This document shows, one piece after another, positions 51,001-57,000 of a stretch of DNA of 64,000 nucleotides; position 1 is the first letter of the stretch, and the number at the start of each line of letters is the position of its first letter. The position numbers were made by a program. Source of the DNA: an uncultured Pseudomonadota bacterium (GTDB lineage Bacteria; Babelota; Babeliae; Babelales; JAUPTZ01); contig CAYSBJ010000002.1 in NCBI GenBank assembly GCA_964429275.1, forward strand, positions 1-64,000. Reading direction: 5' to 3'.

Positions 51001-54000
51001 CGGCATGCCCTTCAGCATTTCTTCGCATTATTGCTTTACGTCTAGAGTTAACGATGACGCAAAGCGAGATCGATGATTTTTCGGGGTTGTTTTACTGTCT
51101 TGATGGAGTTACGCTTCAGGCTGTTGGATTTGTTTGGGCAAATAAAGAAGGGGATGTTGATTGTGTATCCCGTAAAAAAGTCTTGATAGGGATGCTTCTT
51201 CACTACAAAAGGCACTTTTATCCAGGTACGCCGTACATGCTTTTTGCGTACGATAAGGAACTTATAATGAAGCTGCTGCGGTTAAGTACGACTTCATGGC
51301 TTGGTCGTGCAACGGCAGCATGCCATGCATGTATGCTCGCGGAAAGTAAGCTGAATTCCTCTGTTTATGGTATTTTGAAGTTTATGCCTACTGGTCCCCT
51401 TTTATTTTCGGAGAGTCGAGATTTTTTTTATAAAGCAACTCGGATTCAGCAGCACTATTTTATTAAAAGCCCTAGCTCTGTATATACCACTTGGAGTGAT
51501 TTTATTGCTGATCTTGATAAGTTTTTTGATGATGAAAACCGTCCGCGAGTACATGCAGCCTTTGAGCTTCTAGCAAGCCGCTTGCAGCAGTTGTTGAAAG
51601 CGGCATTCTTTGCAGATATGGCAACCGCTTTTTCTGTGGTTCTTGATGAATTAACTCAGAGCGAATATCACGATATATTTGCTCGTGAAGAGATCGTGAC
51701 GTGTATTGCGAAGTGGCGTGCTGCTTTGTATAAGGGGTGGTATGGAGCGTCGGTAAAAGCCTAAGCTTCTTCTCCCGGCGCTTTGCCGAGTACTGTTTTT
51801 ACAAACAGATCCCACTTGATTTTGACCCCTTTGCCTCTGAGGAGTGGTAGCTCTGCACGCTCATTACAGCTGCTGCGGAGTGCCAAAGTTCCTTGGTAGC
51901 AGCGCAACGCATCTGCAGTGTGGAGCGTGACGAAGTCGGCCACGGCCTGGGCATCTTCTCCGTCCATGATGTAAGCATGGTACGCAACGCGAACGAGCTG
52001 CATCATCAATTCCTCGTTATCAAGTACATGGTCGACCGGCTTTTCAAACGAATAGCGGATGATTGACTGGTGGTAGTGGCAGATCAGTCCAATAAAGGAA
52101 CGTAATCTTCCTGGGTGTTTGCCATCGCTGCTTGGCGTAATGGCCATGCGTGCGCACAAAGTACCCAGTTCTTCGGTGAACTGATGGCGCGGCAATGGTT
52201 GGCGGCGATGATGCAAAATCAGCATTATGGCACGAACAAAGCAGGCCTGTTCCCCATCAAGAGTAAGGGTCCACTCGGTAGCCTGTGGCACTTGTTGCGT
52301 TGCTGGTATGTTAAGCGTAATTGCCATTGGCGCAAACGGTTCTTCTGGGTCTCCCGAGCCGGCATACCAAAACGGGATGTAGACTGATCCGCCATGCGGC
52401 AGTTGGATAGTGGTCGGCTTTGTTTGGTAGTAGTCAATTTGTGCAAGGAGCGCATTAAGGTATTCGGTACGCTGTGCATCAGTGGTGTTGGTGATGAGCG
52501 AGGCGAGAGCGCCACCTTTTTGGCTCAAGATAATAAATTGAGCGGCGCATTGGTCTGGCGCTTGTGTTAGATAGGTTTCAAGGCCAATACGTTCTGGTGT
52601 GCTTAGCACAGGCATGCTGTAGAGTGAGCATTGGTCACCACCCTGGGTGAGTTTCAGACGTGCTATTAATGTTTCAAGCGCCTCGCGTACGGTGGCAAGG
52701 TCAGCAGTTTTTTGTTGGCTCACAGTCCAGGCAAGCTGGGCGAGCTTAAAATAAAATTCTTGGCATGGGGTTACGGTTACTGCTGGCGCGATAAAGTGGC
52801 GGATGGTGCGGCGTAATGAGCGTGACTTGCACAGTTGAAAGCTGAGGCCGTCGTAGTTAAATTGTACATTGACGGTGCCACGGATGCCTTCAAATGGCTG
52901 ATTTTTGTTTCCTGCTCCTTTGTATCCCCATCGAAGCTGATAAGTCAGTTCAATAGGGGCTGCTTCTTCATATCCATTTTTTGAAATATTTTTCTTGCGC
53001 TTTGGTAATTGGATAGAAAAAGCTATTTCGCGGGCGTGATCGAAGTTAAGACCGTCGTTGATTGCTTCAGTGAGCTCGGCATTACCGGTCAGAAGAGGGA
53101 TAAGAATGGGGGCGCTCAGGGCTAGTGGCCACTGAGTAGCATCGCTCGTGAGCGGCGTACAGAGTGCCGTCGCGATAAGGAGGAGGTATTTTTTCATAAG
53201 AATGCCTTTGTATTAAGGTTTTACGTATGTGTCTAACCTAGGGGTAAATGGCAGAAATGTCAATTGCTAGGCGCCTGGGGTAGTCTTTGTCGCTCCCCCA
53301 AAGTTGCAATAATGCCTCGTAAGATCGCTCCGTGTTTCATAATGACATGGCGCATGTAGCGGACCAAGCGTTCTGCCCGTTCGGGGGGGTATATAAGCCG
53401 TGGGGTAGCGTAATTCGGGTCTGTGGCTGGATTGAAGAGTGGGTCGTATTCTGCATCTCCCTCGATGGTACAGTAAACAATAACAGGCCCGGTGGCGGGA
53501 TTGCCGTGAACCGAAAGGGGATTTATCGTTATGGCTTCTTCATCAATTTTGGGTAGCCACGGGGCTTCTTCATGCGCTGCTTCCCAGCCGTTTCGTAGGG
53601 ATTTAAGGCGACCGAGGCGTTCTTGTTTACAGTCTACGACAAACAATAGATCGAATGGTTTACTGCTTACCTTAATCGCTGGTTCGAGCGGAAGATTGTT
53701 GAGATATCCCCCGTCGACAAGCGTGATGTTTTTAACATGTGCATGAGGAGAATCGATTGCTTGAAAGCGGGGGTTTGCAATTTTTGCGGCGGTTATTTTG
53801 GTATTGCTCCAGTTTCTGGTTTGCCAGCTTTGGGGAAGAATTTTGTCTACGAACGGCTGAAGCTTTTCTGGCACCCGTTCGAGGGCATCCCGAATACTTA
53901 TGGAGAACGATGAGCCAAAAATGCCGAGCAAGTAGCAAAGACGGGGGGGTGGGGGAGATGAAAGCTGCTGATAGGTATGGAATTGTGCTCCAAGAAGGTG

Positions 54001-57000
54001 AATAGGAACGGTAAGATGATCGTTCAGGAGTTCGAGGGCAAAAGGAGAGACTATCCCCCACTCATAGGTATCGGTTGGTTGTGGTCGTGTTACGGCGGTT
54101 CCGAGAATTAAGGGGTACTTTTCTGGGGTCATGGCGCGTGCAGCGTCCTCCATACTCAACTCAAGAGCGTTTGTGTGGAGCGGCTTGAGTAAGGTATAGG
54201 CCAAGCTGATGCCGTACAAATCAATGCCACTTATGGAGAGGCGATGCGCTTTTTTTGTCGCGATGACGGTAGCAAAGTCATGGTATTGTTCTGCGAGGTG
54301 ATGAATAAGGCCCTGCGATAACCAAGTGATTAATTTGCTGGTATATGCGGTTGGTGTTTCACCGCTGAGTAGCCACGGGAACAAGAACCAGGTGGTGCCA
54401 GAAAGACCAAGGCACGTCTGGATGAGAGGAAGGACGCCGAGTTCTTCGAGCCCACTCATCACACCGGCGATAGTGAGCATGGCGCGAAAGCCGCCGCCAC
54501 TCGCACAGAGGCCGATAGTGAGGGGGCGGGCAAGCGCATGACCACAGTATGCCTCTTGAGTTATATGTGTTTGTATAAAGCGTTTTTGGAGGAATTCTTT
54601 TTCTGCTACGAGCGCGGCACGGGTTAGTGCGGTCGGCGTATAATGGTGCGGCGGTGCATATGTGTTCCAGGTCTGCGTATCAAAAAGTTGAGGAGTGCCT
54701 TCTATTTGATTAATGCAGGCGGTATAGTCAGTGGCCTTAAATAGGCCGAGCATTGCCTTTGCGGCGACACGCATGTCTTTGGTTGGAGAAAGTTCTTCCG
54801 AGCTGAGTGCGACACACAAATGACGAACGGAAAGAAATTGAGGGGAAGGAAGCTCCAGGTGAAGTGCATTGTTGTTAGGGAGATAGTAGGGGCCATTAAT
54901 GCGGGTGCCGACAGTCCCTTTGGTATAGTAAAGGGCTGCGTAAAGTGGAATAGGCGATTGATTTGCTACCCGCAGCATACTGGGGTCAAGAAACCAGGCA
55001 TTTACGTTGTTGGTAATGAGGAAAACACAGATTATTAGAGAGGATTTATTCATGGTCGGATGGTAGCACAAAACCTTTTGCAGCTCAATGAAACGGGGAA
55101 AAATTGACTTTGATAGGGGGTGGTTGTTACAACTGTGCCGCACGTACAATCGAACAATTTAAGGAGATAGAACATGAAAAGAATACTGATGGCCCTGCTT
55201 GCGGTCACAAGCGTTATGGCCTGTCAGGCAGTATCGCGCGAAGTGAACGCTATTCGGGTGGATGCGGTGGAGACCTTGTGTCGGGTGCTGCCGGACACCT
55301 TTGTTTCTCGCAATTTGCTTGCTGATGCTATGCAATTCATTGAAAAAGAGTTGGACCCCGCCGTTCACCAAAAACTACTTGAGTTGCAAGATGAAGCGGA
55401 CAAGTTGAATGCGATAAAAACGCAGATGTTGGCAATTCCAAATGTTACGGCTGATAGTCCTGCGGTTCAAAGCATTGATGTTATGCTCAATGATATAGCG
55501 AAAAAATTTAATGATTTGCTCTATAACGGCGGATTCTTTAATTGGCGTACCTTGTTGTCAGTCGGGATTGGCCTTAATACTGGGCTGTATTGTGGATTAA
55601 ACTACAAGAAAAACGGCGTAACAGCCGTGGGTAAAGCATGGCATGGCGTAGTGGTTGGCTTTGTTGCGGCAATGTTGCTGGAATTTTCACTTCGCGGTCG
55701 CAAAGCGTTGATTGCCGGCAGCGTTTTTAATGTTATGGCCATGGTTGCTGAAGTTATGTACAAGTTTTTTAGCGCCCTTTTTGGTAAATCTGGCACGGGA
55801 GATCGTTGGCTTTCAACGTTGGAAATACAAATGCGTAGCTGGGGTTCACAGCTTGATAAAATCTTTAATAATAAGTGGGGAGCCCTTGGTATTACTGGTG
55901 TTGCGATGCTGGGCGCAGGGCTTATTATAATTAAGCGACAGCGTGATCTGAATCTGCTAAAAACAGCATAAATTTTTCTATAAAAGTAAAAAGGGGCGAC
56001 ATGTCTGTGAGGCATGTCGCCCCTTTTTTTTAGTGAAACCCTTGTTTTTCGTTACTCATTGTCATTAATCTAGTGATGTATTGATTCAAGACCATCTTGA
56101 TACAAAACAATTTTAAAAGGCTTCGAGAAACCCTGAAGGCGCTTTTAAAATAAGGTTTTTGCGCATAGCAAGAAGACTCAGGGTCATACATATAGTAACT
56201 ATTTAAAAGGAGATACGTATATGAAACGTATTATGATGTTAGTACTCAGCCTTGCTACAATAAGTGGCGTACATGCTGCTACGACTGCACCTGCAACAGG
56301 AACCACTGCACCAGCTACTGAAAAAGGCTACATGGGTAGAGCGTGGGATGGAACGAAGGGTTTCTTCAAAGAACACGTTCAAGACTATCACATGGCTACT
56401 GATATAGATGAAAAGGATAATGCTCGTCGCAATGCTCGCATCCGTCGTGGTGTAGGTTCAGCGTTGGGCGCTGGTGGGCTTGGTCTTGCTGCAGCTGAAA
56501 TTGCGATGAACAGAAACTTTTTCTTGGAGTTCTTGTCTAAGTATATCAAGAATGAAGGTGCGCAGAATATTATGAATAAGCGTACTACTAAACTTCTTGC
56601 TTCATTGCTTCAAGCAGTCGCACTTGACGAACTTGGCGGATTAGTTAATGGTCAAGGCGGACGTCGTGGTCTTGTTTCAGGTGGTATTCGTGATGGCTAC
56701 GCCTGGGGTAAGAAGAAATGGGGTAAGAAGTCTTCTGAATCTACGGAGCCTGTGAAATCTTAAGCTCTACTTAGATACTCTTTACAGAAAAGCCCTGGTG
56801 AAAACCGGGGCTTTTCCCTTTTTAGCCCAAAACTCTTCTCTTTTCCCTTCTCCTTCTTCCACTCTATAGTCAAATGTGTCCAAAATAAGCAGACAATGGT
56901 AGCTGTCATTTTGAACTGCATTGACTCTAGTGTGATCGGCCGGTGGCGATCGCGTACCTATAACCGTTGCAGTATGCAACGTATCATTGCGGGGAGGAAT

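Follow-up and report, generated by a model that had tools for sequence, protein, structure and literature searches.

The human group IVA and IVD enzymes cPLA2-alpha and -delta (1cjy, 5ixc and 5iz5) are cytosolic phospholipases in which a beta-rich domain precedes the lipase domain, while the fungal phospholipase B/lysophospholipases of the PLB1 type carry a signal peptide, are secreted and have no C2 domain; the glycosylation and GPI anchor of the fungal enzymes are eukaryotic features inapplicable to a bacterial lipase. In intracellular or pathogenic bacteria, patatin-like effectors are turned on host membranes, and ExoU, VipD, PlpD and Rickettsia Pat1/Pat2 rely on type III, IV or V systems for their delivery. 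The CBASS proteins CapV and CapE are cytoplasmic defence effectors of patatin-type fold, activated by cyclic nucleotides. The 64,000-nucleotide stretch analysed here (the window; contig CAYSBJ010000002.1, assembly GCA_964429275.1) encodes a predicted exported bacterial form of the animal/fungal cPLA2-type phospholipase (P0001), a family present in most genomes of a single phylum, the Babelota, whose members are described as obligate intracellular parasites of protists (PMC4378268, PMC4776705, PMC6561590). The features of the locus are given in Table 1.

Table 1. Features of the lipase gene, its surroundings and its paralogue.
Feature	Coordinates	Strand	Basis or remark
Lipase coding sequence, protein P0001	53260..55053	(-)	597 aa + stop; ORF list, translation, Pfam PLA2_B 53.6 bits
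Signal-peptide-like N-terminus, residues 1-19, MNKSSLIICVFLITNNVNA	54997..55053	(-)	Sequence, orthologue alignment, crude hydropathy script
N-terminal beta-sandwich, residues 24-129	54667..54984	(-)	Motif N..(6)..Y.A.YY..R..P..LP; family-specific
Long linker helix, residues 149-170	54544..54609	(-)	DSSP on AlphaFold model; joins beta-sandwich to catalytic domain
cPLA2/PLB-type catalytic domain, residues 178-590	53284..54522	(-)	Pfam PF01735 at 180-477, phmmer, structural alignment
GGGFR, residues 186-190	54484..54498	(-)	Oxyanion-hole glycines and Arg; equivalent to cPLA2-alpha Gly196-Gly-Gly-Phe-Arg200
Ser218 codon in GLSGT	54400..54402	(-)	Nucleophile; counterpart of cPLA2-alpha Ser228, aligning with GiSGS in cPLA2-delta
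Asp447 codon in VDGG	53713..53715	(-)	Second dyad member, equivalent to cPLA2-alpha Asp549; inside Pfam match
Divergent intergenic stretch, 120 bp	55054..55173	(.)	Between lipase gene and signal-peptide ORF 55174 (+); sequence
Downstream gene, 478-aa signal-peptide protein	51761..53197	(-)	Starts 62 bp past lipase stop
PLA2_B paralogue, 636 aa	G000:C2:295286-297196		PLA2_B at 203-506, 71.6 bits

Catalytic domain and described relatives

The open reading frame of the lipase is real, its length being counted from the ATG. A longer reading from the TTG at 55149 is unlikely, as the alignment of the orthologues begins at the MNKSS start and the divergent gene starting at 55174 lies only 25 bp from that codon. 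The PLA2_B match stands where a preliminary description of this DNA had placed it, with a score of 53.6 bits in place of the 52 given there (E 1.7e-14, cut-off 23), and spans just positions 1-332 of 491 of PF01735. With phmmer the lipase retrieves cPLA2-delta (5ixc, 1e-12) and cPLA2-alpha (1cjy, 3.5e-12), and its structural model (overall pLDDT 90.9) matches 1cjy with a Foldseek E-value of 9e-28 and a VIA-align Z of 40.7 (rmsd 2.5 A over 412 residues). The fold is common to the human enzymes (Z 38.9-40.7), parts beyond the patatin core included, as are the Pfam family, the GGGFR loop, the GxSGS/T nucleophile elbow, the dyad Asp and the position of a beta-rich domain ahead of the lipase domain, although the identity over the structural alignments is only 18-21%. 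The human enzymes also differ in being cytosolic, where the bacterial lipase has a predicted Sec-type signal peptide.

The patatin-like effectors share the superfold, the Ser-Asp dyad and a glycine-rich oxyanion loop with the lipase, but belong to another Pfam family (PF01734, to which the lipase scores 14.7 bits against a cut-off of 27.7), and the structural Z of the lipase to patatin, PlpD, CapE/CapV, iPLA2-beta, VipD and ExoU is 11.8-18.6. In place of the specialised delivery of these effectors, the lipase has what looks like a plain Sec signal. CapV and CapE resemble it in fold (Z 17-18), but the lipase carries a putative signal peptide and is of the cPLA2 type rather than the minimal patatin type; no cyclase gene is found among the ORFs at 50-59.5 kb. 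With the fungal PLB1-type enzymes the lipase has the Pfam family, secretion through a signal peptide (predicted for the lipase) and the lack of a C2 domain in common. P0026, which we take to be a PLB-like sequence, has the invariant GGG-R, GLSG and DGG of the lipase, matches the bacterial profile at only 92 bits and sits on a very long branch in the tree.

Each codon of the motifs SGGGFR (185-190), GLSGT (216-220) and VDGG (446-449) was verified, the cPLA2 residue naming for GGGFR following PMC3521694. No variation is seen at the GGG, Arg, Ser and Asp positions, either in an alignment of 29 members (A1) or in one of 20 sequences, five of them eukaryotic (A3). Among 223 bacterial members, the nucleophile position is Ser in 222 and Cys in P0118, while all four catalytic elements are kept in 217, across sequence identities down to approximately 22%; two of the six exceptions are truncated sequences. 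By Pfam, phmmer, alignment and fold, the catalytic domain genuinely belongs to the cPLA2/PLB family, and its catalytic residues are intact. The paralogue in the same genome, 25% identical to the lipase (149/594, exactly as previously stated), likewise has all four elements intact, and an ad-hoc patatin profile picks out no patatin-fold hydrolase in the genome besides these two. That the protein is an inactive relic or a binding protein which kept the fold and lost catalysis is highly improbable: nothing specific points that way beyond four metagenomic members, among the 223 bacterial ones, with GGS/GGC for GGG or Cys for Ser, and the retention of the catalytic set in both paralogues and throughout the family argues against it. 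P0001 is therefore predicted, from its residues and modelled fold, to be a serine-aspartate acyl hydrolase of the cPLA2/phospholipase-B family that is competent for catalysis. Ser218, activated by Asp447, would attack the ester bond, while the GGGFR loop would form the oxyanion hole and hold the phosphate.

Signal peptide and N-terminal domain

The first 19 residues, MNKSSLIICVFLITNNVNA, followed by Trp, resemble a Sec signal peptide as judged by eye and with a crude script, in line with the signal-like N-termini previously described. A Lys precedes an uncharged hydrophobic core and V-N-A, after which cleavage by signal peptidase I is likely. A-H-A, L-H-G or A-Y-G occur at the equivalent alignment position in orthologues, showing that a small-x-small cleavage-type site is conserved among them, and the sequence contains no credible lipobox. 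The lipase would consequently work outside the bacterial cytoplasm; a Sec signal alone carries a protein to the periplasm only, and three secretin genes in the genome were counted toward export. The crude rule is passed by 99 of the 158 evaluable family members, but also by 242 of the 586 long ORFs of this genome, and signal peptides are reported on 44% of the CDS of a cultured relative (PMC6561590), so that the signal peptide is no distinguishing trait in this phylum.

The mature lipase would consist of three parts, a beta-sandwich, a long helix and the cPLA2-type catalytic domain. The sandwich, overlooked in the preliminary description, is modelled with nine strands at pLDDT 93.2 and stands where the C2 domain stands in cPLA2. 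It is conserved, being found in 22 of the 29 aligned members and wholly absent from the other seven, and within this genome it is carried by the two lipase paralogues only. It has no Pfam family match, and structure searches returned no significant match (best PDB Z 7.0, best Foldseek E 6.8e-3), the weak ones including cytolysin domain-4 (E 0.03-0.1) and C2A (E 0.21, probability 0.33). Unlike the C2 domain of human cPLA2, it is matched by no C2 profile and its fold is not convincingly that of a C2 domain, and the fungal PLB1-type enzymes have no counterpart of it. It might dock on a membrane as the C2 domain does in animal cPLA2, but no support emerged for a function in membrane binding or one akin to that of C2.

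Distribution and origin

In a six-frame search, PLA2_B exceeds the cut-off in 204 of 261 genomes, which constitute the order and equally the whole phylum in the searched set. The phylum-wide presence proposed earlier is borne out, with a count differing from the 181 of 260 then given. Carriers belong to 110 of the 145 genera and 19 of the 21 families, and approximately 400 matches were found in total, with tandem copies and up to five matches per genome; one metagenomic member bears C-terminal ankyrin repeats. The family is missing from 57 genomes, including 41 of the 189 high-quality ones. Elsewhere it exceeds the cut-off in two of 87 genomes from a single other phylum and in none of 301 sampled Pseudomonadota, 14 controls and five further genomes. 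A motif scan gave 33 short matches, and among the nine non-Babelota loci tested eight were patatins and none PLA2_B. These sampled counts are consistent with the 221 of 189,784 bacteria and 0 of 10,118 archaea reported previously, and the phyletic pattern, covering most of one phylum and near zero in samples elsewhere, is striking. The family was said to be absent from the Dependentiae literature, and full-text searching indeed found nothing on the topic; the word 'lipase' does not occur in the Dependentiae/TM6 genome papers examined. NCBI, as had been overlooked, already labels one orthologue 'cytosolic phospholipase'.

Outer-membrane phospholipases of other Gram-negative bacteria remodel or repair their own membranes. 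A comparable housekeeping role, in which the lipase acts on the outer- or inner-membrane phospholipids of the bacterium itself and has no host substrate, would fit Sec export and a presence in most genomes regardless of fatty-acid synthesis, but is improbable. Bacteria with the same envelope needs are practically without the family, as the counts above show, and since it is absent from 57 genomes of the phylum the lipase is not essential. The copy number is, moreover, highly variable and the copies are very divergent, as illustrated by the two paralogues here.

An origin of the gene by acquisition from a eukaryotic host, followed by its conversion into an exported protein, as the preliminary description proposed, is compatible with every functional reading and may be entertained as a possibility, albeit a somewhat doubtful one. 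Beyond the phylum, family members are known in eukaryotes, fungal and molluscan sequences give the best non-bacterial profile matches, all solved relatives are human, and for a cultured member an excess of eukaryote-like genes is described and gene exchange inside amoebae proposed (PMC4378268). In an 85-row tree, however, a branch (SH-aLRT 89) has 78 of the 80 bacterial rows on the same side. The two remaining rows group with two eukaryotic sequences on very long branches, a placement that is not strongly supported (88). With 30 rows, the AU test does not reject bacterial monophyly (p-AU 0.517), and the likelihood is slightly higher for the constrained tree. A single deep clade can accommodate the bacterial sequences, and it is nested in neither the fungi nor the animals. 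The eukaryotic sampling of these trees comprises five sequences, none of them from a protist. As the gene occurs in 19 of the 21 families, any transfer must be ancient.

Lipid metabolism and candidate function

FabF (PF00109) and FabZ (PF07977) have no matches in this genome (98% complete), while PlsC-type, PlsY, PlsX and ACP are retained, together with one FadD-like ligase whose best match, a long-chain-fatty-acid--CoA ligase, falls under its curated cut-off; fatty acids from outside are therefore needed. The lipid scavenging proposed in the preliminary description suits this genome, but is not reflected across the phylum. FabF-type synthases occur in 55 of the 261 genomes, chiefly in families f17 (33/35), f18 (12/12), f20 (3/4) and f15 (2/2), where the lipase is as frequent (32/35, 12/12, 4/4 and 2/2, respectively), and the families without the lipase (f6, 0/7; f8, 0/4) are likewise without FabF. 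The presence of the lipase does not track with the loss of fatty-acid synthesis.

In its most likely function, which we regard as probable, the lipase would be exported and would act as a phospholipase or lysophospholipase on lipids from the host, a candidate means of breaking down host membrane lipids. During intracellular growth in the protist it would strip fatty acids from host glycerophospholipids or lysophospholipids, whether in the periplasm, at the cell surface, in vesicles or in a host compartment. The loss of acyl chains may damage host membranes, and the freed chains would feed the membrane of the bacterium through the FadD-like ligase, ACP, PlsX, PlsY and PlsC. Host membranes are reported to be in disarray late in infection (PMC6561590), and the route by which TM6 bacteria obtain host lipids is stated in PMC4776705 to be unknown.

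It is rather unlikely that the lipase is instead a nutritional periplasmic enzyme, de-acylating phospholipids or lysophospholipids that are already imported and supplying the same ligase and PlsX/PlsY/PlsC, with no effector role. The Sec signal by itself predicts the periplasm, this genome keeps the acylation steps without FabF/FabZ, and for the cultured relative both phospholipid import through an ABC system and a lack of lipid biosynthesis are described (PMC6561590). Against this, the lipase is equally common in FabF-bearing and FabF-lacking families, and the expansion, tandem duplicates and ankyrin fusion look more like a host-interaction family. Furthermore, no transporter gene adjoins the lipase gene according to the ORF list and Pfam.

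The divergent intergenic stretch upstream likely holds the promoter region of the lipase gene, and no obvious Shine-Dalgarno sequence was seen in it by eye. The 478-aa protein encoded downstream matches no Pfam or NCBIfam family; its strong matches are confined to bacterial family f1 (6/6), with five marginal partial matches in the rest of the order. Its gene lies beside the lipase gene and in the same orientation in five of the six f1 genomes, the two being on separate short contigs in the sixth, and this adjacency is conserved within f1 only.

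Catalytic architecture and predicted export of the lipase

The lipase gene comprises 597 codons and begins MNKSSLIICVFLITNNVNAW. An upstream TTG start at position 55149, which would add 32 residues (629 aa), is rejected, as the alignment with orthologues of 29-71% identity begins at MNK; this TTG is further disfavoured by lying 25 bp from the divergent ORF that begins at 55174. Residues 180-477 of the encoded protein match PLA2_B (PF01735, 'lysophospholipase catalytic domain') in Pfam with 53.6 bits (cut-off 23) over profile positions 1-332 of 491. The Patatin profile (PF01734) reaches 14.7 bits, under its cut-off of 27.7, and covers residues 438-460 only, while no NCBIfam model matches the protein. 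Among solved human proteins, the sequence matches cPLA2-delta (E 1e-12) and cPLA2-alpha (E 3.5e-12). The 1.208 Mb genome (8 contigs, 98% complete) contains exactly two PF01735 genes, the second being a paralogue at 295286-297196 of contig C2 (C2:295286-297196), which codes for 636 aa with a PLA2_B match of 71.6 bits and shares 149 of 594 aligned positions (25%) with the lipase. A Pfam re-scan and the pairwise alignment reproduced the figures given for both genes in the preliminary description. These two proteins are also the only patatin-fold hydrolases found in the genome by an ad hoc profile search. The domain assignment has precedent: databases already name orthologues cytosolic phospholipase or phospholipase A2, one being titled 'cytosolic phospholipase [Candidatus Dependentiae bacterium]' at NCBI.

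Features of the lipase, its AlphaFold model and the surrounding DNA
Feature	Position	Strand	Remark
Putative MutS-type ORF	48179-50641		820 aa
Run of signal-peptide-like ORFs around the lipase	50661-59470		
478-aa signal-peptide protein	51761-53197	-	62 bp downstream of the lipase, same strand; ORF of the run
Lipase	53260-55053	-	597 codons
Signal-peptide-like ORF of the run	55174-55971	+	
Signal-peptide-like ORF of the run	56221-56763	+	
Signal-peptide-like ORF of the run	57003-57872	+	
Signal-peptide-like ORF of the run	57893-59470	+	
Disordered N-terminal signal region	start of lipase	-	AlphaFold model
All-beta domain	strands between residues 26 and 125	-	AlphaFold model
Long helix	residues 149-170	-	AlphaFold model
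Alpha/beta catalytic domain	to ~residue 590	-	AlphaFold model

The AlphaFold model of the lipase was built from an alignment of 29 bacterial sequences (mean pLDDT 90.9, pTM 0.85). Its catalytic domain superimposes on cPLA2-alpha (1cjy) with Z 40.7 and an rmsd of 2.5 A over 412 residues (Foldseek E 9e-28) and on cPLA2-delta (5iz5) with Z 38.9, whereas patatin, PlpD, the CBASS lipases CapE and CapV, iPLA2-beta, VipD and ExoU reach Z 11.8-18.6 and Foldseek E-values of 1.6e-5 or weaker. This difference argues for a cPLA2-type enzyme beyond mere membership of the patatin superfold, and the modelled fold is of the cPLA2 type and not the minimal patatin fold, the superfold being common to both. In cPLA2-alpha, the catalytic dyad consists of Ser228 and Asp549 and the oxyanion loop of Gly196-Gly-Gly-Phe-Arg200 (PMC3521694). 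The counterparts in the lipase, confirmed codon by codon, are the loop and arginine G186-G-G-F-R190, the nucleophile Ser218 in G216-L-S218-G-T, aligned to GiSGS of cPLA2-delta, and, by alignment-based assignment, the dyad aspartate Asp447 in VDGG. All of these are invariant in both the 29-sequence alignment and a second alignment of 20 sequences that includes five eukaryotic rows (three fungal, one molluscan and one PLB-like). The GGG, Arg, Ser and Asp are kept together in 217 of the 223 bacterial-type members gathered, the six exceptions being two truncated sequences, three with GGS or GGC and one with Cys replacing Ser. Such retention is the pattern of a presumptively active enzyme under purifying selection.

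Ahead of the catalytic domain, residues 24-129 carry a signature of N, then Y.A.YY, R and P..LP, which is found in 22 of the 29 aligned members and missing from seven. Predicted alone, this domain forms a nine-stranded beta-sandwich (pLDDT 93.2), and a profile HMM of it recovers only the two lipase paralogues across the genome. It belongs to no Pfam family and gives no C2 or cPLA2_C2 match at E-values up to 0.1. Comparison of the isolated domain with solved structures yields no Z of 8 or more, all matches being at noise level; the best are the PepT2 extracellular domain (Z 7.0) and TssJ and VHL (Z 5.8). Foldseek places 2mca first (E 6.8e-3), followed by the membrane-binding domain 4 of cholesterol-dependent cytolysins (E 0.03-0.1), and the sole C2 row, a C2A domain, is weak (E 0.21, probability 0.33). 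None of these comparisons supports a C2 identity, although a diverged C2 domain is conceivable. The animal group IV cPLA2s hold a calcium-binding, membrane-docking C2 domain at the place taken in the lipase by the beta-sandwich, but a membrane-docking role for the latter would be an analogy and not evidence.

The N-terminus of the lipase, inspected by eye and with a crude script, contains a Lys, then a hydrophobic core of 11 uncharged residues, and V-N-A ahead of Trp20, and orthologues show A-H-A, L-H-G or A-Y-G at the alignment position of V-N-A. A lipoprotein is rejected, there being no credible lipobox: the sole Cys (position 9) lies within the hydrophobic core after L-I-I and is unconserved. 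The same script passes 99 of the 158 evaluable family members, with truncated gene calls accounting for many of the failures. As it also passes 242 of the 586 long ORFs of the genome, and signal peptides are reported on 44% of the CDS of a cultured relative (PMC6561590), the signal peptide appears real but not distinctive in the phylum. Three secretin genes are present in the genome. This conserved signal-like N-terminus distinguishes the lipase from the animal group IV cPLA2s (alpha, beta, delta, epsilon and zeta), which are cytosolic and lack a signal peptide. The lipase would likewise differ from injected patatin effectors of the ExoU/VipD type, which rely on type III or IV delivery and C-terminal host-targeting domains, in having a predicted Sec-type signal and nothing beyond residue 597.

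Distribution and history of the family

PF01735 is matched over its cut-off in 204 of the 261 genomes (78%) of the order Babelales, which makes up the whole phylum Babelota (TM6, Dependentiae) in the genome set. The carriers include 148 of the 189 high-quality genomes, 110 of the 145 genera and 19 of the 21 families, with ~400 matches in total and up to five per genome. Elsewhere, the gene occurs in two of the 87 genomes of the phylum to which a record titled 'Candidatus Riflebacteria' belongs, both carriers being 7-8 Mb in size, and PF01735 is absent from 301 evenly drawn Pseudomonadota genomes, five genomes of other phyla and 14 controls. These samples are consistent with the near-confinement to Babelota proposed in the preliminary description.

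A motif scan in which each prokaryotic species was represented by one genome, with Babelota-derived patterns that bias it towards this phylum and against distant carriers, retained 78 loci. Family-type matches are present at 45 of them, of which 43 are long and two (L045 and L058) are interrupted by a contig end. The records of these 45 are titled TM6, Dependentiae or Babeliales (25), plain 'bacterium' (10), 'uncultured Pseudomonadota' (8), an 'Alteromonas' MAG (1) and 'Candidatus Riflebacteria' (1). Nine loci titled 'uncultured Pseudomonadota' or 'Alteromonas naphthalenivorans' (L018, L024, L032, L037, L043, L049, L052, L057 and L058) lie in 0.8-1.4 Mb MAGs that coincide with members of the order. 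Among the records so titled that were checked, one agrees with an order member in its contig coordinates and three agree with order members in best E-values and sizes, and the titles therefore look like mislabels. In the other 33 loci the match is limited to 42-119 residues round the glycine loop; nine of these were tested, of which eight are patatins and none is PLA2_B. Searched against 1.84 billion representative proteins, the bacterial profile recovers 1,278 clusters with E-values no weaker than 1e-30; the top 150, which score 435 bits or more, are all bacterial-type. The scan of viral contigs yields two short matches only, and a search of BFVD returns generic patatin-like proteins only (E 7e-5 or weaker, TM ~0.3), so that no link to giant viruses is seen.

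A tree was inferred from 80 bacterial and five eukaryotic catalytic domains, none from protists (470 columns, LG+C20, SH-aLRT support only). The lipase clusters with its own orthologues (support 100), and the paralogue is sister to this group (95), which indicates that the two copies arose by duplication within the lineage. A branch with support 89 sets 78 bacterial rows apart; the other two, long proteins of Babelota, attach to the longest two of the eukaryotic branches (88), which resembles a long-branch artefact. In a 30-row subset analysed under LG+G4, the grouping of all bacterial rows in one clade is not rejected (p-AU 0.517). Protist homologues were found neither by a word-indexed protein search (21 and 24 matches) nor among the best 150 of the 1,278 representative clusters, and with the five eukaryotic sequences as the sole comparison, inter-domain transfer in either direction would fit. 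The gene has a long history in the phylum and was not captured recently from fungi or animals.

The two sequences from the Riflebacteria phylum form a pair (100) nested among those of Babelota, which suggests that they probably derive from a transfer out of Babelota. L030 comes from the 7-Mb Candidatus Riflebacteria record and L095 from genome G275; both are full-length copies with a signal peptide and the N-terminal domain. Their gene GC is 58%, with flanks of 57-59% in L095 and 36-42% in L030.

The family shows several further arrangements. Tandem PLA2_B pairs occur at six fetched loci of other Babelota genomes (L022, L023, L026, L028, L056 and L057), and in the tree the copies of L023 pair with those of L026, so this duplication would be older than the split of the two genomes. 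Long variants of 920-1233 aa are encoded at L043:2611-5370, L046:2458-5553 and L059:341-3580, that of L043 having the N-terminal domain repeated behind the lipase domain. Of the other long variants, P0126 shows a sub-threshold PI-PLC-X match upstream of the lipase domain, and the metagenomic member P0133 carries C-terminal ankyrin repeats, a fusion that would fit a host-facing role.

Lipid metabolism and putative role

Protists are the hosts of this widespread phylum of obligate parasites. Profile searches of the genome find no FabB/F-type, FabA/Z-type or DegV/FakB genes, yet PlsX, PlsY, a PlsC-type acyltransferase and ACP are encoded, together with one ligase whose best match, a long-chain-fatty-acid--CoA ligase, falls under the model's curated cut-off. 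By this gene content the genome is able to build phospholipids and must take its acyl chains from outside. Passages in early papers on the phylum likewise describe an absence of fatty-acid synthesis and a route to host lipids that is unknown (PMC4776705, PMC4378268), and host membranes are described as being in disarray late in infection (PMC6561590). An exported phospholipase/lysophospholipase would fit this gap in host-lipid acquisition.

FabB/F-type synthases are, however, encoded in 55 of the 261 genomes of the phylum, concentrated in the families f17 (33/35), f18 (12/12), f20 (3/4), f15 (2/2) and f13 (1/1), so that the general absence of fatty-acid synthesis published for TM6 does not appear to hold for these families. 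This distribution bears on lipid scavenging, one of the roles put forward in the preliminary description: the lack of FabB/F- and FabA/Z-type genes in the present genome speaks for it, but no link between lipase presence and the loss of fatty-acid synthesis was found across the 261 genomes. A purely nutritional role is unlikely, since f17, f18, f20 and f15 hold the lipase as frequently as the remaining families, and the two lipase-free families are also without FabF. As the lipase does not follow FabF loss, a general host-lipid-directed role is favoured, in which the enzyme would combine membrane attack with acyl-chain supply. A more sweeping scheme, very doubtful when taken as a whole, would see an ancient, phylum-wide, self-contained 'bacterial cPLA2' that joins a new beta-sandwich docking module to the cPLA2 domain, is exported by Sec, and serves the parasites to break into and feed on host membrane lipids, the inter-domain transfer that connects it with animal and fungal cPLA2/PLB being very old and possibly from bacteria to eukaryotes.

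The preliminary description had held the family to be unnoted in the Dependentiae literature, and the searches agree. Full-text searches combining Dependentiae, TM6 or the names of cultured members with phospholipase or lipase return nothing on a cPLA2-type family, those on PF01735 return, by title, only fungal and yeast papers, and no title among the matches listed for effectors, eukaryotic-like proteins or gene transfer in the phylum concerns this lipase. In the main text of the genome papers PMC6561590, PMC4378268 and PMC4776705 the word 'lipase' occurs 0 times. Three points appear new: an exported bacterial cPLA2/PLB branch with an N-terminal domain peculiar to it, the near-confinement of this branch to a single phylum and its possible role in host-lipid uptake. 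The branch is the first sizeable bacterial one in an enzyme family for which work has otherwise been confined to animals and fungi. Being predicted to be exported, motif-intact, present in 78% of the genomes and nearly absent from other sampled prokaryotes, the family is a concrete candidate for host-lipid acquisition and host-membrane damage. It may also serve as a marker gene for the phylum and, as a minimal cPLA2 fold without C2 domain or phosphorylation sites, in structural and mechanistic work. Patatin-type phospholipases are well-known tools of intracellular bacteria; the biology is therefore expected in kind and new in family, and its practical weight is moderate.

Genomic neighbourhood of the lipase

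The lipase and the 478-aa signal-peptide protein encoded downstream are adjacent and co-oriented in five of the six genomes of the bacterial family f1, to which the present genome belongs. This neighbour matches no Pfam or NCBIfam family, has no usable Atlas match and, having no convincing relatives elsewhere in the order, would not be a general partner of the lipase family. The predicted complex of the two proteins scores 0.00 in two runs made without folded controls, a result that speaks neither for nor against binding.

An 820-aa ORF situated 2.6 kb from the lipase looks by eye like a MutS-type mismatch-repair ATPase, and the proximity of such an ordinary bacterial housekeeping gene disfavours a contaminating eukaryotic contig. 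On the + strand, the GC skew between positions 48000 and 60000 is positive (0.05-0.23) across genes of both strands, which suggests a replication-strand rather than a gene-strand effect.

The lipase is set in a run of ORFs whose N-termini resemble signal peptides and none of which matches a Pfam family, an arrangement suggestive of an island of lineage-specific exported proteins. The last two ORFs of this run (56967-57872 and 57893-59470) both end in a hydrophobic stretch followed by DY[AV]KRG, a motif present in no other ORF of the genome, and may represent a tandem pair of tail-anchored exported proteins.
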